Virus genome (UHGV): UHGV-1455077
Direction: 5' to 3' (one strand)
Length of the DNA stretch: 64,000 nt
DNA from: a virus
A program made the position numbers and the translations under genes. Shown here piece after piece: positions 22,772-60,770 of the stretch (positions are counted from its first letter, which is position 1; each line of letters starts with the position of its first letter). The notes under the pieces were generated by a model. It searched no databases and was not told the DNA's origin. It saw nothing but the letters and a program-made list of their open reading frames with translations.

Positions 22772-23269
22772 ATGTCTGTTTGTGCAGTACGAAAAACTGA
22801 TAAATTTATTGAACTTAGTTGTGATACACAATTGACTTGCGATACAACGATTTCATCTGAATTTTTAGATTCAAGTAAAATGTTTGAAAAAAATGGAATG
22901 ATTGTAGCAGGAGCTGGCCCGATTCGTGAAATAAATATGTTGAAAATCTTTATGGAAAAAAATTTAATTGGTGAGCCAACCGAAGAAAATATTTTAATGT
23001 TTATGTTTGATTTTCAGCAATTTAAACAGCAAATGGGATTGCCACCAGAAATTGAATGTCAGTTTATTTTAATTTTAGGAAATAAAGTTTTTAGTGTTAT
23101 TCAGGGAGAAGTTTTAGAAATTCCAAGATTTTATGCTATTGGTAGCGGACAAGATTTTGCACAGGCGGCATTGTATCTTGGACATACAACTGAACAATCA
23201 GTAAAAGTTGCGTGTAATTTAAATGTTTATTGCCACGAGCCAGTTAAAACAATAACAAAAGAAATTTAA
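22772..23269 (+). CDS. HslV/proteasome-beta-like Ntn hydrolase
   Basis: ATG at 22772 with GGGAG RBS; FYAIGSGQDFAQAALYL matches HslV LIAIGSGGPYAQAAARAL; N-terminus MSVCAV, so Ser replaces Thr1. Confidence 0.55.
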   Translation: MSVCAVRKTDKFIELSCDTQLTCDTTISSEFLDSSKMFEKNGMIVAGAGPIREINMLKIFMEKNLIGEPTEENILMFMFDFQQFKQQMGLPPEIECQFILILGNKVFSVIQGEVLEIPRFYAIGSGQDFAQAALYLGHTTEQSVKVACNLNVYCHEPVKTITKEI

Positions 23270-49855: not shown

Positions 49856-50365
49856 ATGAATTTATTTTTGTTACAGCAATATCAATTTATTAATGATATA
49901 TATAAAAATGAAAATTATTTAGATGTTTTAATGAATATTGATGATTTTTTTGATATTTTAAATGTATATGCTTTTCCTAATTGGTTTGATGCCGAAGTTA
50001 TTGAAGTAAAATTTTTAAGACATTTTACTAATATTATATTAAAAACTCCTCGTGATAAAAAACCTGATATTAAAGGAAGTGTGTTATTATCAAAATATGA
50101 TTGTTTAGTTAAATATAAAGAATCATATGAATATCTTCCTAAAGAATATAAGACAGAAAAAGATATTAAATATAATACTCGTACAGGAAAATATGAACCA
50201 ATTATGGAGAAAAAAGATATATGGTTAATTGATATTTTGATTCCAAATAAACACATTATTAATGATAATGTTTATGATTTAGATGCCATTCAAAAGAAAT
50301 TGGATGATGAAGATGATAATGATGAAAATATTGAATCAGTTGTATCAAATGGTGATGAAATTTAA
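49856..50365 (+). CDS. Hypothetical acidic protein
   Basis: 169 aa. Confidence 0.4.
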   Translation: MNLFLLQQYQFINDIYKNENYLDVLMNIDDFFDILNVYAFPNWFDAEVIEVKFLRHFTNIILKTPRDKKPDIKGSVLLSKYDCLVKYKESYEYLPKEYKTEKDIKYNTRTGKYEPIMEKKDIWLIDILIPNKHIINDNVYDLDAIQKKLDDEDDNDENIESVVSNGDEI

Positions 50366-51067: not shown

Positions 51068-53182
51068 ATGAAATTATATAGAGGTTATAATAAAGATTAT
51101 CCAAATTGGGGAATTAGACCAAATCAAAATTATATTTGGACGACTGATGATATTGATTATGCATTAGAGTATACTAAATTATTTGATAATGGCGGTTTAG
51201 TTGAATTTGATGTAGATGTAAATCAATTAAATTTAGCAGATGATTATGATGGTGAAGAATTATTTGGCGATGAATGGTATGATTTTGGTGGTTTGATTGA
51301 TGCTGATAATGATATGATTCAAGTTTTTATAGATAATGGTTTTAATTCAGCATTATTAGATAATAGTGGGATTGATTGTTATTTATTATTTGATAAAAAA
51401 TTAATTAAATCCGCAAAAGAATTACCATTAAATAATATTGAAAATAAATTAAATGAATCTTATCAATTATTTAAAAATATATATTTAAAAGAACATACAG
51501 GATTTATCGTAAGAGAAACACCAGCATCATATCTAACATATATAAAAAATTACATACAAAAAGTTCTTGATTATGAGCCAAATGCAAACAATTATCCCTT
51601 TATTACAGAAGATAAAAAATATTATTGGGATAGAATTGCAGGATATTATAATGTAGATACTAAAGAATTCATTTATATTTCACCCGATGAAACACATCAA
51701 AATGAAGAAGAATTTTATGAAAAAAATTATGTAAGATTTTTTATAGCAGATATAAAACATAGAGCATTATATGTTTCACATATTGATTATAATATTGCCT
51801 ATAAAGGCTATAAAGCTATAAAAGAAAAATATAAAGATTTTGGAATTGAATATTCTGTTGTTGAATGGTATGAAAACAATGATTGGAAAGAAATAACTTT
51901 TGATGATAAAGGACATAAAGTTAAAATAACTCAAATTTATGAAGAATTTAAAAAATATGTAATGCCATTATATGAACAACATTTTAATAAAGAAATTAAT
52001 GAAGTTTTAAGAATTGCTGGGGTTCAACGATTAAATGAATCTTGGACGGATAGTAATAATTTATATAATATATATGAAAATTATACACCATATAATGTTT
52101 TAGTGGCATTTAAAGAAGGTGAAAAAAACATTTGGTTTCCATTGATTAAACCAACAGAATATAAACAAGCGTTATTGGAATTTATGAAAATGGGTGAATT
52201 AGTAAGATTTCCAAAAGATAAAGTATTTAAATGGTTAGAAATAATTATGAAAAATACTTGTATTTTAAGCTCTAATACTTTTTTAGCAGGTCACGAAATG
52301 TATTTTCCATTTGACGATATTATAGATGCTTATCCAGAAGCAGAAAATCTTGAACAAGATTATTATGTTTTTTCTAAATTTTTAGAAGATAAAGGTTTTT
52401 ATAATTGGTGTAAATTGCCAGATGGTTCACCTGCTTGGAGTGATTATGGATTAAAACCATTATGGAATATATTAGATGAATATAAAGAAGATATGACTAT
52501 TGAACAAGTTCTTGTATTGGTTAATAGATGTTTAGATGTTTATCATCAACAAGGAGATTTAGCATCAGCATTTATTGAAGGTGGTTCATCATCATTAACA
52601 AAAATTTCTAATGAATGTGTTAAAAATAATGGTAATATAATTAATGAATCATATTTGAAAACAGATAATGGGATAATTTATTATACAAAATCAGAAAATG
52701 TTTTTATTAATACTATAAATGCAAGATTTAAGAATATACCTGTTAGAGTAATTTATGATTTAAAAAATAGATTATATGTATTTGGTGATGCTAATAAATT
52801 TGTTCATACACAAATGATGAATTATATTCTTATTAACACAAAATTATATTCTACAAAAGGGTGGAATCAAAGTTATTTTAATGAAGATGGTAATTATTGG
52901 CGAGATGGATATATAGAGGATAATTTATTTAATGCACAATGTGCTTTATTTCAAATAATTTGGGATGATGATATTGAAAAATATACAAAATATGATGGAT
53001 ATGATACAGGATATTTTACCACAATAGATAATAAAATGTATGTTGTTTGTAGACAGAATGAATTAAAATATTGTGAAAAAGTACCTTTATTATGGAATAA
53101 TCATTGGTTTTCACAAAAATATGATAATATGAAAGATTTTCAATTAAATGAATCTATATTTGGAGAAACACTTGGTTATTAA
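51068..53182 (+). CDS. Large modular protein; the N-terminus may be an R-S-E (Alt-like) ADP-ribosyltransferase; internal linker motif; C-terminal domain shared with ORF 26923-28728
   Basis: LYRGY...WTTDD...EY at N-terminus; NEVLRIAGVQRLNE at about aa 309-322; VRVIYDLKNRLYVFGDANKFVH resembles VRGIYDLKHKIYIFGDAYNVIH. Confidence 0.5.
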   Translation: MKLYRGYNKDYPNWGIRPNQNYIWTTDDIDYALEYTKLFDNGGLVEFDVDVNQLNLADDYDGEELFGDEWYDFGGLIDADNDMIQVFIDNGFNSALLDNSGIDCYLLFDKKLIKSAKELPLNNIENKLNESYQLFKNIYLKEHTGFIVRETPASYLTYIKNYIQKVLDYEPNANNYPFITEDKKYYWDRIAGYYNVDTKEFIYISPDETHQNEEEFYEKNYVRFFIADIKHRALYVSHIDYNIAYKGYKAIKEKYKDFGIEYSVVEWYENNDWKEITFDDKGHKVKITQIYEEFKKYVMPLYEQHFNKEINEVLRIAGVQRLNESWTDSNNLYNIYENYTPYNVLVAFKEGEKNIWFPLIKPTEYKQALLEFMKMGELVRFPKDKVFKWLEIIMKNTCILSSNTFLAGHEMYFPFDDIIDAYPEAENLEQDYYVFSKFLEDKGFYNWCKLPDGSPAWSDYGLKPLWNILDEYKEDMTIEQVLVLVNRCLDVYHQQGDLASAFIEGGSSSLTKISNECVKNNGNIINESYLKTDNGIIYYTKSENVFINTINARFKNIPVRVIYDLKNRLYVFGDANKFVHTQMMNYILINTKLYSTKGWNQSYFNEDGNYWRDGYIEDNLFNAQCALFQIIWDDDIEKYTKYDGYDTGYFTTIDNKMYVVCRQNELKYCEKVPLLWNNHWFSQKYDNMKDFQLNESIFGETLGY

Positions 53183-54777: not shown

Positions 54778-56175
54778 ATGAAAATAATTGCATATCACGG
54801 AAGTCAAACAAGTAAATTGAAAATGTATAATGGTTCTGCTTTGTATTTTACAACAAGTTATGAACAAGCTAAATCATATGCTAAACGTGAATGGGATGAA
54901 GGGCTAATTGAGGGAGAAATTCCTGTTGTATATAAAGCTGAATTAACTTTTAATAATCCTTACAAAATTGAAAATTATGATGATTTTCAAATGGAATTTA
55001 CAGATAGTAATATGAATGAATATTTTAGAGAAGAATTAATTGAAAAAGGATATGATTCTGCTATTTATAATGATAGAAAATCAACTTTGATATGTATTTT
55101 TTATCCTTCACAATATAAAATTTTAGATATAGAAAAACTTCCACCTTCATTAGACTATTATTATAATGGAGAACTTAATGATGAAGATGATGATATAAAT
55201 GACTATTATTATGAAAACGACTATGAAGATGAATTAAATGAAGTATTAAAATTATCTAATATTAAACTTATTAATGAGCAAAAAGATTTTACAACATTTC
55301 AATTACCTAAAAATATACCAAGTAATTTTTTTAAAATAACTAATTCATTAAAAGATATAAAAAATTGGAAAGCGAGAATTTTAGAAAATAATAGTGGCGG
55401 TGAAGAATTAAAAGTTGGTGATTATGATGAAGTTGGATATGTAATGATTTCATTAAAAGATAATACTATTATTCCAATTGCTCATTCCGATGAACATCAT
55501 CGTGGATATGATATTATGTATGAAATATATGAATCAAAATATAAAATTCATCCGAGTAATTTTTATAGCGTTTATTGCTTACCAAATTCTGCCAATTATC
55601 CATATAGTAAAGAAGAAGCTGATAAATTAAAAGATGCTTTAATTAAATGTGATGAATATGGAATGGATTTGGATACATCTAAAGTTTATTTAAAATATAT
55701 TGATAGTCTTTATAAAAATAAATCATATGATGAATCTTTAATTTCTGCCAGAGATTTTATTTCTGGAAAATATGGGTTGGCATCATTTGGAGAAACTGTT
55801 TCTCTTATTGGTGAGAAGTTGGTAGATGCATTTAAAAATTTATCAAATACATTTGAAAATACAAATGTTCGTGGAGATATTCCAATAACACAATTAAAAA
55901 TGGCTGTTAAAAAATTATATACAGTTGGTAGTCGTATTCAACTTCCAGATAAATTTAAGTTAATCAATCCATTAGATTTAGAAGAAATGATGGATATTAT
56001 TGAACAATATAAATCTAAATATATTGATATACAAAAATTATATAAATTATTTTTTGGATTTAATGGATTTAGAAATATTTTTCATCAAAGACTAAGAAAA
56101 AATATTGGCAATGAAGATTTAAATAAACAATTAGGTTCAGTTAAAGTTGTCATTGAAATGATAGGGGCAATATAA
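54778..56175 (+). CDS. Protein with an N-terminal PARP-like (H-Y-E) ADP-ribosyltransferase domain and an internal linker motif
   Basis: AYHGSQTSKLKMYNGSALYFTTSYEQAKSYA; linker DELNEVLKLSNIKLINE at about aa 152-168. Confidence 0.55.
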   Translation: MKIIAYHGSQTSKLKMYNGSALYFTTSYEQAKSYAKREWDEGLIEGEIPVVYKAELTFNNPYKIENYDDFQMEFTDSNMNEYFREELIEKGYDSAIYNDRKSTLICIFYPSQYKILDIEKLPPSLDYYYNGELNDEDDDINDYYYENDYEDELNEVLKLSNIKLINEQKDFTTFQLPKNIPSNFFKITNSLKDIKNWKARILENNSGGEELKVGDYDEVGYVMISLKDNTIIPIAHSDEHHRGYDIMYEIYESKYKIHPSNFYSVYCLPNSANYPYSKEEADKLKDALIKCDEYGMDLDTSKVYLKYIDSLYKNKSYDESLISARDFISGKYGLASFGETVSLIGEKLVDAFKNLSNTFENTNVRGDIPITQLKMAVKKLYTVGSRIQLPDKFKLINPLDLEEMMDIIEQYKSKYIDIQKLYKLFFGFNGFRNIFHQRLRKNIGNEDLNKQLGSVKVVIEMIGAI

Positions 56176-56957
56176 TGTTTGAAAAAGAAATTAATGAAAT
56201 ATTAAAATTATCAGGTATAGATATTTTAAATGAAATATCCTTATCTGGTTATTTGGAACGTTCACGTAATTTAAAAAATATGTTATTTCACGGAACATCA
56301 TTATTTAATGCTTATAAAATTTTTGAATCAGACCTTATAATAGGTTATACAGAAACAACACCTGTGAATGGTAAATCTTATACTGGTGTATCAACATCAA
56401 GAAATTTTGATTATTCAGCAAAGTTCGCTTTACAATATTCAGATGATTACCATTTTAAAAATTATTATTTAGATAATATATTTAATCCTGTTGTTGTTTT
56501 TTGTTTTAATAAAGATAATTTAAAATCAAAATATAAAATAGTTCCATATGATTATAATAGTACAAATGATAGTTTTTATAGTAAAAGAACCGAACAAGAA
56601 GAAGTTATTGTTGGAAATATTAAAAATATTAAAAATATAACAGAAAAAGTTGTTATGAATAAAGATGCTTTAACTCTTTTTCAATATGGTGCTATAGGTG
56701 AATTTTTAATTAAAAGATATTATTTCTTTAATAATAAAGAAGAAGAATTTTATGATGATATATTTGATATAGCCATAGAAGAAAATTTAACTTATGACGA
56801 AGATAAAGATGTATATATAACATCTGCGGGTGAAACATTATATCCTGATGATATTTATAATATTGGTTTAGAAAAAATGATTCAAAAAATGTTTCCTAAA
56901 ATGAATGAATTTTATGAATTTTTAAAAGATAAAAAATTCGAAATATATAATAATTAA
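56175..56957 (+). CDS. ART-like protein (HGT...GKSYTGVSTS) with an N-terminal linker motif; translationally coupled to the upstream gene
   Basis: MFEKEINEILKLSGIDILNE; FHGTSLFNAY; TAATG overlap. Confidence 0.45.
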   Translation: MFEKEINEILKLSGIDILNEISLSGYLERSRNLKNMLFHGTSLFNAYKIFESDLIIGYTETTPVNGKSYTGVSTSRNFDYSAKFALQYSDDYHFKNYYLDNIFNPVVVFCFNKDNLKSKYKIVPYDYNSTNDSFYSKRTEQEEVIVGNIKNIKNITEKVVMNKDALTLFQYGAIGEFLIKRYYFFNNKEEEFYDDIFDIAIEENLTYDEDKDVYITSAGETLYPDDIYNIGLEKMIQKMFPKMNEFYEFLKDKKFEIYNN

Positions 56958-56966
56958 AGGTTTATT

Positions 56967-57296
56967 ATGAAAAAAATATTAATTATTTTATTAGCTATTT
57001 TATTATGTGCCTGTACAACCGTTAAAACTGAATATGTTTATCAAACTGTTTATCCAGAATTACCACAGCTTGAATCTCCATTAATTTTAGCAAATATTCC
57101 TTGTACATTTATAATGCCTGAAAACCCTGATGAAAAAATTTTTATTGGATTTGATAAAGAAAATTATAAATGTTATTTAAAAAATCAAGAAATAAATCGT
57201 GAACAGAAACTTCTTTTTGAAAAATTTGTATCAGAAATTAACAAAGAAAGAAAAAATTGGAATTTTAAAAACAAAAAGATTGACAATAAAAAATAA
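56967..57296 (+). CDS. Lipoprotein
   Basis: Signal peptide MKKILIILLAILLCAC with lipobox LLCA-C; 109 aa. Confidence 0.5.
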   Translation: MKKILIILLAILLCACTTVKTEYVYQTVYPELPQLESPLILANIPCTFIMPENPDEKIFIGFDKENYKCYLKNQEINREQKLLFEKFVSEINKERKNWNFKNKKIDNKK

Positions 57297-57331: not shown

Positions 57332-58009
57332 ATGTCATTTTTTAATTTAAAAAAAATAAAATCCCTGACAAAATTAAATAAAATTTATAGATTACTAAGT
57401 AAAACATATCATCCAGATAATAAAGTAACAGGTAATGCAGAGCAATTTATAGAATTGAAAGAAGAATATGATAATGCTAAAAAAATAGTATCATCATTGC
57501 CAACTTCAATTGTTATCAATATAACTACAACTCAAGCTTTTAAGGGAAAAGAGGTAATTTATAATTCTAAAAATGGCGAAACTGCCATAATTAAAATACC
57601 ACCAAAATTTTATAAACAAGATAATGTATTAATTAAAGATAATAATGGTAACAAGTATATTGTTTCTGTAAATATTAAACCAGACGAAGATGAAAATATT
57701 ACTTATTCTCGGAATGGCGATATAATTATTACAAAATATATTGATGTTACTCCTCTTGATTTGTTAACAGAAAATATCAAAACATTTAAATTATTTGGTG
57801 AAGAAAAGAAAATTCAAATAACTAAAAATTTAATTAATAATATTCAACAACCTTTTATGTTGTTAAATATTGGTTATCCATTGAAAAAAGATAGAAAAAA
57901 ACGTGGAAATGTTAAGATTAAATTTAGAATTAAATCTATTACATTAGATGATAATGATAAAAAAGATATTGTTAGAATGAAGGAAAAATATAAATGTCAA
58001 TTGAATTAA
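57332..58009 (+). CDS. J-domain protein (DnaJ-like co-chaperone)
   Basis: LNKIYRLLSKTYHPDNK with HPD tripeptide; 225 aa. Confidence 0.6.
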   Translation: MSFFNLKKIKSLTKLNKIYRLLSKTYHPDNKVTGNAEQFIELKEEYDNAKKIVSSLPTSIVINITTTQAFKGKEVIYNSKNGETAIIKIPPKFYKQDNVLIKDNNGNKYIVSVNIKPDEDENITYSRNGDIIITKYIDVTPLDLLTENIKTFKLFGEEKKIQITKNLINNIQQPFMLLNIGYPLKKDRKKRGNVKIKFRIKSITLDDNDKKDIVRMKEKYKCQLN

Positions 58010-60270
58010 ATGAACAAAGTATGTTAACTGAAATAGGGTTACAAGCTACCGAATTTCTTAAAAAATCTAAGGCTAAAACATTATTACCTGTGCATTTTTT
58101 AGCGGCTTTGTTACAATTTGATTATATTAAAAATCTTCTAAATAATAAAAAACCAGAAGAATATAAAAAATTGGTTGAAGAAGTTAATGATTTCATTTTT
58201 AATTCAGATAAAATTGAAAAGTTAACTGATGAAGATGACCCAAATGAAATGGAAATTAGTCCTTTAATAAGTGCTTACATTTCATATGTGAGTGTATGCA
58301 GTAAAGGAAGTGCTGATATTATAAAAGTTATTCCTGAACTACATTGGATTGATTTATTAGGAGCATTTTTATTTTTAAAGACTGATATTTCAACAATTAT
58401 TTTAACAAAATATGGAATTAATTTAGAGTTTATTGATGAAGTTTTTGAAGAACTGACCGCTGATATTATTATTGAAGAAAGAATCAAACCAATTATCAAT
58501 AATCAAACCAATGAAAATAATGCGGAAGAAGAATATTTGAAATCTTTTACAATAAATTTAACTGAAAAAGTTAAATCTACTGATTGGATTCCTATTGTTG
58601 GAAGAACAGACGATTTAGATTTAATAAAACAAATTTTATTAAGAAAAGACAAACCTAATGTTTTATTGGTTGGATATTCAGGTGTAGGTAAAACAAAATT
58701 AGTTGAAGGTTTGGCTTATGATTATTTAACATATGATAAGAATACAACATTTTTACAATTAGATACATTATCTTTAATGTCAAATATTGGTATTAAAGGT
58801 GAGTTAGAAAATCGTATTAAAAATTTGTATAGAATTATGATGAAAAAAGAAAATATTATATTATTCATTGATGAAATTCATACAGTATGTAATTCATCTC
58901 CTAATTCTGGGCAAATTGATATATCTAATTTATTAAAACCATTACTAACTGATGGAAAATTAAAACTTATAGGGGCAACAACATTTGAAGAATATAGAAA
59001 ATATATGGAAGATGATGAAGCTTTTACCAGAAGATTTTATAAATTAGTTATTAATGAGCCAACATTTGAAGAAACACAAAAAATTCTTGCTCAAATTTCA
59101 TCAAAATATGAATATTTTTATAAAATAAAATATTTAAAAAGAGCAAGAGATTCAATTTTGGATTTAACAAAAAAATATATGTTTGAAAAACATTTTCCTG
59201 AAAAAGCTATTGATGTACTGGATATGGCAGGAGCATATTGTAAGCATATTAATGAATGTGTATGTGATGTTCCACAAATTCAACAAACAATTGCTAGAAT
59301 GTTAAATCTTCCATTATCAACTGTTTCCCAGACTGAAGAAAATATGTATCAGCATATTGAAGAAAACCTTAAAAAAGAAATCATTGGTCAAGATGAAGCT
59401 GTTAAACAAGTAAGTGATGCTGTAATCATTTCTCGGTCTGGCTTACGAGAATCAAATAAAACAGCATCTTCGCTGATGTTTAAGGGTTCTTCTGGTGTGG
59501 GTAAAACAGAATTATGTAAAGTATTAGCTAAATCAATGAATATACCATTGATACGTTTTGATATGTCAGAATATATGGAAGAACATTCTGTACCAAAATT
59601 AATTGGTGCCCCTCCAGGATATAAAGATGCAGGCAATGGTAAAGCAGGAAATGGATTATTAATTAATGCAATTGATGAAAATCCATATTGCATATTATTA
59701 CTTGATGAGATAGAAAAAGCTCATCCGAAAATTCATAATTTACTTTTACAAGTAATGGATAATGGTAAATTAACATCGTCAATGGGTAAAAGTGTATCTT
59801 TTGAAAATGTATTTTTAATTATGACTTCAAATGTTGGGTCATATAATAGTCATAAAATTCGTATTGGATTTGGTAATACTGATGAAAGTCCATCTGATAA
59901 GGATTTTGAAGATAGCTTTTTGCCTGAATTTAGAAATCGTATTGATTCAGTAATTACATTTAATGATTTACCATTAAATGTGTTAAAAGAAATTTGTAAA
60001 AAATTTCTTAATGAATTAAAAGAAATGTTAAAGCAAAAAAAGATTGATTTTGTTTTTAATGATGATATTATAGAGTATATCATTTCAAAGGTTAAATCAT
60101 CTAAAGATGGTGCAAGACCGATGAAGCACGTTATTACTAATGAAATCAAAAATGAAATAGCAAAAAATATTGTATTTGGAAAATACAATAAAAATGATAA
60201 AATAAAATTATCAATTAAAAACAATATTATTAATTTTGAGGTTGTGAAAAAATGTTTGAAAGAAGATTAA
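57994..60270 (+). CDS. clpA: ClpA-like AAA+ unfoldase (two ATPase domains)
   Basis: 758 aa; Clp-N-like N-terminus; Walker A GYSGVGKT (D1) and GSSGVGKT (D2); LLLDEIEKAH Walker B; no ClpB middle domain. Confidence 0.75.
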   Translation: MSIELNEQSMLTEIGLQATEFLKKSKAKTLLPVHFLAALLQFDYIKNLLNNKKPEEYKKLVEEVNDFIFNSDKIEKLTDEDDPNEMEISPLISAYISYVSVCSKGSADIIKVIPELHWIDLLGAFLFLKTDISTIILTKYGINLEFIDEVFEELTADIIIEERIKPIINNQTNENNAEEEYLKSFTINLTEKVKSTDWIPIVGRTDDLDLIKQILLRKDKPNVLLVGYSGVGKTKLVEGLAYDYLTYDKNTTFLQLDTLSLMSNIGIKGELENRIKNLYRIMMKKENIILFIDEIHTVCNSSPNSGQIDISNLLKPLLTDGKLKLIGATTFEEYRKYMEDDEAFTRRFYKLVINEPTFEETQKILAQISSKYEYFYKIKYLKRARDSILDLTKKYMFEKHFPEKAIDVLDMAGAYCKHINECVCDVPQIQQTIARMLNLPLSTVSQTEENMYQHIEENLKKEIIGQDEAVKQVSDAVIISRSGLRESNKTASSLMFKGSSGVGKTELCKVLAKSMNIPLIRFDMSEYMEEHSVPKLIGAPPGYKDAGNGKAGNGLLINAIDENPYCILLLDEIEKAHPKIHNLLLQVMDNGKLTSSMGKSVSFENVFLIMTSNVGSYNSHKIRIGFGNTDESPSDKDFEDSFLPEFRNRIDSVITFNDLPLNVLKEICKKFLNELKEMLKQKKIDFVFNDDIIEYIISKVKSSKDGARPMKHVITNEIKNEIAKNIVFGKYNKNDKIKLSIKNNIINFEVVKKCLKED

Positions 60271-60770
60271 GTTATGAGGAAACTTTAAAACTCATTGAAA
60301 GGGGTATTTTACAAGTAAATAATGTTCATATTTGTTTAGATAATTTATCTAAACATTCAACAGATGAATGGATAATTGAATCCATTAACATTGATAAAGA
60401 TAAACAAGAGATTATATTTGGTGTTCAGCCGTTGTTCTTTCCAATTACCAGTAGTCAAGAACCAATTCCAGTTCCATATAAAATGATTAAAGAAGTTAGC
60501 AATATGCCTATTGAATGCCTGTTAGAAGCATATGATATGGCAGAAGCAAAAAGAGTTATTGAAGTTTATTTAGAAACTGATATTGAAACTGATGTTATTG
60601 GAAAAGAAGATGTTGAATTCGAAGGATATGAGTTGTATGATGGATTACAATTTATATTACATAATGATAAAACTGCCAAATATAATGATAAGATATTAAC
60701 TGTTAAAGGGGTTGGAGAAGCAATAAGATTTGTTGCAAATAGAGGACGACCTCGTAAAAAAAGAAATTAA
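60252..60770 (+). CDS. Hypothetical protein with a C-terminal AT-hook
   Basis: Ends with ANRGRPRKKRN (RGRP core). Confidence 0.45.
   Translation: MFERRLSYEETLKLIERGILQVNNVHICLDNLSKHSTDEWIIESINIDKDKQEIIFGVQPLFFPITSSQEPIPVPYKMIKEVSNMPIECLLEAYDMAEAKRVIEVYLETDIETDVIGKEDVEFEGYELYDGLQFILHNDKTAKYNDKILTVKGVGEAIRFVANRGRPRKKRN

Follow-up and report, generated by a model that had tools for sequence, protein, structure and literature searches.

Introduction

What does a bacteriophage gain from a gene for a J-domain co-chaperone that runs into the gene for a ClpA-like protein unfoldase, and does a proteasome-like peptidase encoded 35 kb upstream belong to the same system? These questions are raised by a 64-kb stretch (64,000 nucleotides; hereafter the window) of the virus genome UHGV-1455077, in which the J-protein gene occupies positions 57332-58009, the gene for the ClpA-like ATPase 57994-60270 and the peptidase gene 22772-23269. 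The window derives from a jumbo myophage of the human gut with a genome of ~289 kb and 25% guanine plus cytosine (GC). An earlier interpretation made from the letters of the window only (the sequence-only reading) had joined all three genes into one phage-encoded proteostasis module. The analysis described here indicates that the two overlapping genes form a translationally coupled operon of a type widespread in jumbo phages, that the ClpA-like protein carries a near-invariant tripeptide at the position through which ClpA docks to ClpP, and that the peptidase stands apart from both.

Iyer et al. described ClpA, ClpX, ClpP, ClpS and DnaJ-domain proteins as sporadic genes of jumbo phages (PMC7824862), and a 2025 paper on 'moraphages' reported ClpA as near-core and noted phage DnaJ and DnaK (PMC12619734). 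The scattered occurrence of chaperone and Clp genes in jumbo phages is known in this sense, and their roles are as yet hypothetical. All three genes considered here belong to already known kinds, and the IMG annotation of this phage names their products ClpA, DnaJ-class chaperone and HslVU peptidase subunit; the points of interest are the conserved operon and the conservation of the docking tripeptide, IGF. Our literature searches found no paper on the linkage of J-protein and ClpA genes or on IGF conservation. A near-constant operon of an Hsp40 and a viral ClpA, together with a near-invariant IGF, offers testable hypotheses in tractable relatives such as Pseudomonas phage PA5oct.

A predicted J-protein-ClpA operon recurs in jumbo phages

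The elements of the locus at the right-hand end of the window are as follows.

57332-58009, + strand: J-domain co-chaperone of 225 residues, a predicted compact class-B-like Hsp40 with a J-domain (residues 1-55), a DnaJ-type C-terminal beta-domain and a terminal helix
57410-57418, + strand: codons of the Hsp70-stimulating motif HPD (residues 27-29; translation checked)
57994-58009, + strand: 16-nucleotide overlap of the two genes, with the ATG of the ClpA-like gene inside the J-protein open reading frame (ORF) and its Shine-Dalgarno sequence GAAGGA in the J-protein coding sequence
57994-60270, + strand: predicted ClpA-like double AAA+ unfoldase of 758 residues, with a divergent N-domain, D1 ring, D2 ring and D2-small domain and no M-domain

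The J-protein ORF starts at an ATG 8 nucleotides past the Shine-Dalgarno sequence AGAGG, and GAAGGA lies 9 nucleotides upstream of the ATG at 57994. The junction is similarly tight in relatives, being a 10-nucleotide overlap in L007, a 6-nucleotide gap in L009 and a 9-nucleotide gap in PA5oct. The pair is kept in three phage relatives in which the J-protein is 50-68% identical; this conservation counts for little, because these relatives share overall synteny with the window.

A profile scan of IMG/VR reaches further, with 80 ClpA-like loci, 77 of them viral and 3 of host type. The host-type loci are clpS-clpA loci whose ClpA carries IGL. Among the viral loci a J-protein gene is directly adjacent to the ClpA-like gene in 32, and a peptide deformylase gene stands between the two in 38; 6 lack upstream sequence and 1 has upstream sequence but no J-protein. 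A J-protein is therefore encoded upstream on the same strand at 70 of the 71 assessable viral loci. When the viral loci are grouped at 60% ClpA identity they fall into 18 clusters, 15 of which have the J-protein. ClpS is absent from all viral ClpA-like loci in the scan and is present in the three host-like loci. The three-gene cassette of J-protein, peptide deformylase and ClpA-like protein (38/77 viral loci, within L022-L101) is a recurrent arrangement in its own right, and no peptide deformylase is encoded in the window.

The same pairing is found in cultured jumbo phages. In PA5oct a 229-residue 'chaperone protein DnaJ' is encoded directly before the ClpA gene (EST35_0297/0298), and the pair is flanked by structural genes verified by mass spectrometry. 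The gene order in Sinorhizobium phage Phosso is DnaJ-like, peptide deformylase, Clp, and in Agrobacterium phage Atu_ph07 the ClpA gene gp292 adjoins the DnaJ gene gp293 (PMC6102473). No J-protein gene neighbours the ClpA gene of GAP32 or of a Vibrio phage. The window resembles the PA5oct, Atu_ph07 and Phosso pairs in gene order and strand, in IGF and an insert in the D2 pore loop, and in its structural flanks; the PA5oct J-protein is of similar size, and one gene upstream in the window is homologous to a PA5oct gene. Identity to the cultured pairs is nevertheless just 33-42% for ClpA and ~27% for the J-protein, the tyrosine of the D1 pore loop has been lost in the window's clade, and the deformylase gene that separates the two genes in Phosso is missing between those of the window.

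Given the linkage at 70 of 71 loci and the conserved IGF, the J-ClpA pair is a widespread and ancient viral operon that carries a ClpP-docking motif. The overlap and the internal Shine-Dalgarno sequence are those expected of translational coupling, and on sequence grounds we regard genes 57332-58009 and 57994-60270 as a proteostasis operon of this type.

The J-domain protein

Detection of the J-domain by single-sequence methods is marginal. The Pfam DnaJ model matches the ORF at E=3.3e-4 and 21.1 bits, which is below its gathering score of 27.8. When a profile built from five homologues was searched against the PDB, all 20 of 20 matches were J-domains, the best at E=1.2e-4. The HPD motif is kept in 5/5 close homologues and in 65 of the 70 J-proteins encoded upstream of viral ClpA-like genes; five J-protein ORFs run off the edge of the locus. 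An AlphaFold2 model places helices at residues 12-26 and 36-55 around HPD with a predicted local distance difference test score (pLDDT) of 83-88, although the model as a whole is moderate (overall pLDDT 67; residues 59-89 below 50). The exclusively J-domain profile matches, the invariant HPD and the modelled hairpin together identify ORF 57332-58009 as a J-protein.

Structural comparison extends the resemblance to the C-terminal half. The best Foldseek match of the model is Thermus thermophilus DnaJ (4j80, E=1e-6), followed by the C-terminal domain of Brucella DnaJ, Sis1, Hdj1 and CbpA (E 1e-6 to 1e-3). With class B Hsp40s such as T. thermophilus DnaJ, CbpA, Sis1 and Hdj1 the protein would share the J-domain, a client-binding C-terminal domain of beta-sandwich type, a terminal helix and the absence of a zinc finger, whereas it is much shorter at 225 residues, has no G/F linker and shows no detectable sequence similarity to them beyond the J-domain. 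The sequence contains neither a CxxCxGxG zinc finger nor a G/F-rich stretch, and the zinc finger is found in 0/70 of the viral J-proteins upstream of ClpA-like genes. The match to the DnaJ equivalog model TIGR02349 reaches 24 bits against a cut-off of 377, and because zinc finger and G/F linker are lacking the protein is not a DnaJ equivalog. Sequence and model thus point to a compact class-B-like Hsp40 consisting of a J-domain and a putative client-binding C-terminal domain. From the invariant HPD alone we infer that it would stimulate the ATPase of an Hsp70.

A characterised phage J-domain protein, Rki of phage RB43, is reported to act on host DnaK (Perrody et al. 2012, PMC3486835, cited via PMC12619734). 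Rki and the window protein are both phage J-domain proteins, and they differ in that the latter has a predicted C-terminal domain of DnaJ type and is encoded in an operon with ClpA. Rki is said to combine its J-domain with an unrelated C-terminus and to have no linkage to a Clp ATPase.

The ClpA-like ATPase and its docking tripeptide

The second gene encodes two AAA+ cassettes (Pfam AAA and AAA_2). Its product matches the ClpA model TIGR02639 over the full length in a single stretch at 624.3 bits, which does not reach the curated cut-off of 993.15, and phrog_4871 at E=4e-193. The best PDB match is Escherichia coli ClpA (1ksf, E=4e-131), again in one continuous stretch (residues 172-739, aligned to residues 159-733 of ClpA), whereas the matches to ClpB and ClpC models are broken into two. 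The continuous alignment with ClpA implies that the M-domain of ClpB and ClpC is absent. By these measures the 758-residue protein is ClpA-like but not an equivalog of ClpA. A ClpB-like disaggregase was considered as its identity and ruled out, as there is no M-domain. Alignment to E. coli ClpA places the functional motifs, all on the + strand, as follows.

58672-58695, + strand: D1 Walker A, GYSGVGKT
58783-58803, + strand: D1 pore loop, NIGIKGE, with Ile for the usual aromatic residue of KYR (specific to this clade)
58858-58881, + strand: D1 Walker B, ILFIDEIH
D1, + strand: sensor-1, GATT
59026-59037, + strand: D1 arginine fingers, TRRF (the RR pair)
59485-59508, + strand: D2 Walker A, GSSGVGKT
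59617-59655, + strand: D2 pore loop, GYKD with a 4-residue insert, in place of GYVG
59695-59715, + strand: D2 Walker B, LLLDEIE
D2, + strand: sensor-1, TSN
59863-59871, + strand: IGF tripeptide in a D2 loop, residues 624-626, aligned on I617-G618-L619 of E. coli ClpA
59923-59940, + strand: D2 arginine finger, PEFRNR
60109-60123, + strand: D2 sensor-2, GARPM

Every Walker, sensor and arginine-finger residue is present in both D1 and D2. The equivalents of K220, E286, R339/R340, K501, E565, Y540, N606, R643 and R702 are kept in 83-84 of 84 viral homologues, the window's included. The D1 pore-loop position is less uniform, with Tyr in 68 of the 84 viral sequences, Phe in 12 and Ile or Val in 4, all four of which belong to this clade.

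The loop residues IGL of ClpA insert into a hydrophobic pocket of ClpP (10.1101/820209). HMMER and MAFFT alignments agree in setting IGF at this position, and across 88 aligned sequences the tripeptide there is IGF in 76, LGF in 4 and VGF in 2. Relative to E. coli ClpA, the unfoldase of ClpAP (PDB 1ksf, 6w1z), the window protein is of the same length (758 residues), has two catalytically complete AAA+ rings and a D2-small domain, lacks an M-domain and bears a hydrophobic-Gly-hydrophobic docking loop at the same position. It differs in that its loop reads IGF, the tripeptide of ClpX, in place of IGL, that GIK replaces KYR in the D1 pore loop and D2 has GYKD with its 4-residue insert, that the N-domain is not recognisable as Clp_N, and that a J-protein gene lies upstream where clpA has clpS. 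Some trace of the N-domain can still be aligned, since the TIGR02639 match begins at residue 16 and the remnant 'LLPVHFLAALLQ' aligns with 'MTVEHLLLALLS' of ClpA.

The homologue of a related phage (L009:6664-9093; 53% identity, 809 residues) has an intact D2 and a degenerate D1, with GVGKN as Walker A, IEDIH as Walker B and the arginine fingers changed from RR to KK. To judge from these substitutions, the D1 of this clade may be on its way to becoming a structural ring.

The sequence-only reading had described an HPD-bearing J-domain ORF that overlaps the start of a 758-residue ClpA-like ATPase with two Walker A/B cassettes, and had taken the two as a module; this description holds in full, with the overlap measured at 16 nucleotides, HPD at residues 27-29, intact motifs in both AAA+ rings, and the same pairing at nearly all assessable viral loci and in three cultured jumbo phages. 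It had left open whether D2 carries a ClpP-docking tripeptide and whether arginine fingers and sensor residues are conserved, and both are now answered in the affirmative, the former by IGF at residues 624-626. The identifications of the J-protein, the ClpA-like protein and the HslV-like peptidase discussed below are all confirmed far beyond chance.

ClpP in related genomes

If IGF is a docking motif, a ClpP should be at hand. In PA5oct, Phosso and Atu_ph07, the cultured phages that have the pair, a true ClpP is encoded elsewhere in the genome: that of PA5oct (EST35_0272) is 46% identical to E. coli ClpP and was detected by mass spectrometry, and those of Phosso and Atu_ph07 are each 64% identical to it. 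Closer to the window, a degenerate motif scan of IMG/VR recovered a ClpP of 195 residues (GQACSMG, MIHQP; E=1e-94 against the ClpP profile) on the sister contigs 3300045988_149940 and 3300045988_143958; the ClpA-like gene is on these contigs too, as is a proteasome-like gene with 82% identity. Hundreds of contigs of 280-289 kb carry ClpP variants that are nearly identical. In the loci that were fetched, clpP follows the genes for the tail sheath, a 5'-3' exonuclease and an intein-bearing Terminase_6C. The window genome is syntenic with these ClpP-bearing sisters as far as the tail-sheath gene, where the readable sequence ends; the 10 kb upstream of the window stop in this gene, ~4 kb short of the position of clpP in the sister genomes; by synteny a clpP of the window genome would lie ~14 kb upstream of window position 1. 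A strict AT-rich ClpP motif scan matched other gut jumbo phages, and an exact-match scan for clpP in the window's genome found nothing. A clpP of the window genome's own is at present a prediction from synteny.

The sister-genome ClpP (L218:73-660, - strand) has as its closest relatives, after the phage variants, ClpPs of metagenome-assembled genomes labelled 'Alphaproteobacteria bacterium', with 81-85% amino acid identity. Such identity suggests that phage and host exchanged the gene recently and that the host belongs to the gut Alphaproteobacteria, which is a clue for a prevalent and uncultured human-gut phage.

Many sister genomes encode a further double-AAA protein beside clpP (697 residues, L256:4592-6685), which begins 4 nucleotides beyond the stop codon of clpP and has ...ANRIGF* as its C-terminus. 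Resemblance to Cdc48/VCP is confined to the second of its AAA domains (PDB E~1e-17). The C-terminus of a homologue with 33% identity, from a fecal-virome contig that looks GC-rich in its translated frames, is ...RPIGFIH*. To judge from these termini, a C-terminal IGF tail encoded next to clpP may represent a new means of docking to ClpP. The gene is present in L256-L265 with the exception of L259, which has an uncalled stretch of similar length, and absent from L268-L272 and L279-L281; being strain-variable, the 697-residue protein was rejected as a core partner of ClpP.

The large terminase in this region is apparently split into Terminase_6N (358 residues) and the intein-bearing Terminase_6C (376 residues) (L274:18289-22139; L276:1934-9631). 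The ~5.5 kb between the two parts hold the tail-sheath gene and the 5'-3' exonuclease gene.

Possible functions of the operon

As the most likely function of the pair we favour, by a modest preference, a late-expressed fold-or-degrade module that docks by IGF onto ClpP. The J-protein would recruit and stimulate DnaK (Hsp70), presumably that of the host since no phage DnaK is encoded in the window, and its C-terminal domain would present clients, most plausibly the abundant late structural proteins of the phage. The ClpA-like hexamer would dock via its IGF loops onto the ClpP tetradecamer, which could be phage-encoded, as in the sister genomes, PA5oct, Phosso and Atu_ph07, or could be the host's own. 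The docked complex would unfold and degrade selected targets, for example phage proteins that are misfolded or scaffold-like, or proteins of the host, such that J-protein and ClpA-like protein together would provide the phage with a triage system in which proteins are folded or degraded.

A more far-reaching form of this proposal, which we offer tentatively, is that the operon of J-protein, in many loci peptide deformylase, and IGF-bearing ClpA encodes a virus-specific triage machine in which a stripped-down Hsp40 couples host Hsp70 to viral ClpA-ClpP. In cells Hsp70 couples to ClpB and ClpA uses ClpS, and we know of no coupling of Hsp70 to ClpA-ClpP in cells. If real, such a machine would let the phage choose between folding and destruction of nascent or host proteins. 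Within the window's clade it would have diverged, as the D1 pore-loop aromatic residue is lost and D1 is catalytically dead in one relative.

Several observations weigh against the fold-or-degrade module. J-proteins are not known to work with ClpA, adjacency of genes speaks for co-expression and not for physical cooperation, and literature searches turned up no experiment on any phage J-ClpA pair. Genes for ClpP, ClpS, DnaK and HslU are missing from the window and from the 10 kb that follow it, and a search for these and for peptide deformylase in every flank that was fetched found none close to the pair. The ClpP-bearing sisters are related to the window genome at some distance: the three contigs compared directly have ~87% nucleotide identity to it over the syntenic region, and the other ClpP-bearing contigs that were fetched have gene sizes of the sister type. 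ClpP variants (at least 81% identity) are found on no contig longer than 288,903 nucleotides, while those of the window's type are up to 293,139 nucleotides long, and the window's own IMG/VR contig was not matched in the degenerate ClpP motif scan. In the ATPase itself, loss of the D1 pore-loop aromatic residue and the change of GYVG to GYKD in D2 mean that substrate handling may differ from that of ClpA, and no Pfam Clp_N domain is found in residues 1-189 although the N-termini of the PA5oct and Phosso proteins are recognised.

The alternative that survives best, though we consider it unlikely, is that the pair acts without ClpP, as an analogue of DnaK-ClpB in which the J-protein, host DnaK and a ClpA-like remodeller rescue or fold virion proteins and nothing is degraded. 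The genomic neighbourhood is consistent with this: both in PA5oct and in the window the pair is surrounded by genes for virion structural proteins (in the window at 49856, 50375 and 60830, annotated 'virion structural protein' by PHROG and on the same strand as the pair), and clpP is missing from the window and from the next 10 kb downstream. Published suggestions run in the same direction: Iyer et al. proposed a role in translocation or virion assembly for the ClpA and ClpX of jumbo phages (PMC7824862), and Attai et al. proposed removal of aggregates by the chaperones of Atu_ph07 (PMC6102473). However, IGF is near-invariant among very divergent viral homologues, which is hard to explain unless it docks to ClpP, and every cultured phage with the pair (PA5oct, Phosso and Atu_ph07) has a ClpP of its own. 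The architecture of the ATPase also fits poorly, since it aligns continuously with ClpA and lacks the M-domain, the part through which ClpB couples to DnaK.

Less probable again is the idea that the J-protein serves the viral ClpA-like ATPase mainly as its own adaptor or regulator, in effect a substitute for ClpS, its C-terminal domain delivering substrates or binding the divergent N-domain and any interaction with DnaK being secondary. Near-obligate linkage (70 of 71 assessable loci) would be expected of such an adaptor, as would the lack of ClpS at viral loci when the three host-like loci have clpS-clpA, and the N-domain of the window protein has diverged past recognition by Pfam. Strict conservation of HPD, on the other hand, indicates selection for stimulation of Hsp70, and the insertion of peptide deformylase between the two genes in 38 loci would sooner be expected of a general operon for protein biogenesis than of a closely coupled adaptor pair.

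The proteasome-like peptidase

The gene and the residues on which its assignment depends are listed here; family counts refer to 145 full-length representatives, drawn from a family for which an exhaustive profile search returned at least 1,157 representative proteins of ~165 residues.

22772-23269, + strand: proteasome-like N-terminal nucleophile (Ntn) hydrolase of the BPH/HslV group, 165 residues, with predicted nucleophile Ser1 and D18, K36 and G47/G49
Position 2 in the family: Ser in 116, Thr in 29, nothing else (n=145)
D18 (equivalent of Asp17): 145/145
K36 (equivalent of Lys33): 144/145
G49: 145/145

Translation starts at ATG 22772, and every close homologue begins with MSVCAV; GTG 22757 is not the start, because it sits within the Shine-Dalgarno sequence GGGAG. 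The same 165-residue sequence has been deposited under 'Myoviridae sp. ctWb16'. Its PHROG match is phrog_1040, 'peptidase HslV family' (E=4.5e-22), whereas TIGR03692 (HslV) gives 17.8 bits against a cut-off of 157.75, and hhalign aligns it with HslV at a probability of 78%. PDB searches with the single sequence returned spurious matches to designed repeats only, and BPH and HslV appeared weakly when a profile was used. The AlphaFold2 monomer is confident (pLDDT 86; predicted template modelling score, pTM, 0.83), and in Foldseek it is closest to BPH (template modelling score, TM, 0.80-0.82; best match 5ovt, 0.82), then to HslV (E~1e-7) and to 20S beta subunits; in BFVD, 37 phage proteins have its fold.

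The phage proteasome homologues PPH, AAH and CPH have been described with a 'Thr1/Ser1' catalytic triad and without propeptides, and the window protein shares with BPH, PPH, AAH and CPH the compact Ntn fold, the missing propeptide, the arrangement Ser/Thr1-Asp17-Lys33 with an oxyanion Gly, and occurrence in phages with no known partner unfoldase (Fuchs, Alva and Lupas 2021, PMC8665760). Its model contains helix H1 as well as H2, and hence the window protein is not of the ~140-residue PPH type, of which the PPH of Xanthomonas phage OP1, starting with MTT, is an example. With HslV (ClpQ) it has in common the fold and the GSG and Lys33 motifs, but it has Ser in place of Thr1, and HslU is encoded neither in the window nor beside members of the family in 83 loci. 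According to the modelled fold, BPH-type proteasome homologues resemble the peptidase more closely than HslV itself does.

HslU, ClpX, ClpA, ClpP and the J-protein are all missing beside peptidase-family genes in 83 viral loci (931 kb). The commonest neighbour across L106-L185 is an upstream ORF of ~200 residues, a dUTPase by motif alone, in 53/83 loci, and the second commonest, in 38 loci, is an ORF that by appearance resembles a DnaQ-type exonuclease. In the window the gene lies among DNA-metabolism genes, next to a helicase and a TnsA-like endonuclease.

The sequence-only reading had called this an HslV-like peptidase with an N-terminal Ser, possibly a divergent or pseudo-protease, belonging to the module. 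The Ser at residue 2 stands, and BPH has turned out to be a closer match than HslV; the equivalents of Asp17, Lys33 and Gly47 are conserved in 144-145 of the 145 representatives. As Ser1 is the norm of the family and the catalytic residues are conserved, an active Ntn hydrolase is to be argued, not a pseudo-protease, and an easy misreading is thereby corrected: in phage proteasome homologues Ser1 is the rule and no sign of decay. That the peptidase and the ClpA-like unfoldase nonetheless make up one protease system, or that the peptidase is a pseudo-protease, is very improbable, since the two genes, though related to proteolysis, present in one genome and labelled on the peptidase side 'HslVU peptidase subunit' by IMG, are 35 kb apart, 0/83 family loci have a J-protein or AAA+ unfoldase encoded alongside, the family has invariant catalytic residues with Ser1 as its norm, and IGF loops of ClpA type dock to ClpP and are not known to dock to HslV. 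ORF 22772-23269 probably encodes, as far as sequence allows, an independent and active proteasome-like peptidase with Ser1; it is not the partner of the ClpA-like ATPase and not part of the J-ClpA module.

Genomic setting

Genes are tightly packed across the 64 kb of the window, in which GC content ranges over 22-28%. They include those for an anaerobic ribonucleotide reductase NrdD and its activase, ThyX, an NAD-dependent ligase, SbcCD, methyltransferases and helicases, as well as a head-tail adaptor, head-closure proteins and virion structural proteins. The window is devoid of tRNA genes, the jumbo genome size notwithstanding. An identical ClpA-like protein is present on many human-gut metagenome contigs of ~286-291 kb, and the locus had no match at the nucleotide level among cultured phages. 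The anaerobic NrdD hints at an anaerobic host. A lipoprotein with a lipobox (LLCAC) at 56967-57296 has weak matches to Rz-like spanins, and ORF 53192-53572 matches an Rz-like spanin family at E=1.4e-5; together these two spanin-like ORFs hint at a diderm host.

Immediately downstream of the pair lies one further ORF.

60252-60770, + strand: ORF of 172 residues, overlapping the stop of the ClpA-like gene by 19 nucleotides, with an AT-hook-like C-terminal end, RGRPRKKRN

It has no Pfam or PHROG match, is conserved solely inside this phage clade and is a doubtful member of the J-ClpA module.

On the upstream side, ORF 51068-53182 has no PHROG match and encodes 704 residues in the window and in some strains and 520 residues in L001, L003, L004 and L006, a difference in size that points to a strain-variable insertion. 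Two ORFs resembling ADP-ribosyltransferases (54778-56175 and 56175-56957) lie ~0.4-2.6 kb upstream of the J-ClpA pair, with only the lipoprotein ORF in between. One of the two matches ART-PolyVal at E=5e-7 and the other, weakly, the PARP catalytic domain at E=3e-3. In strain L006 the second of these ORFs, together with the last ~23 codons of the 232-residue ORF upstream of the first, is replaced by an ORF of 56 residues, and the first is absent as well, such that the ADP-ribosyltransferase region varies between strains.

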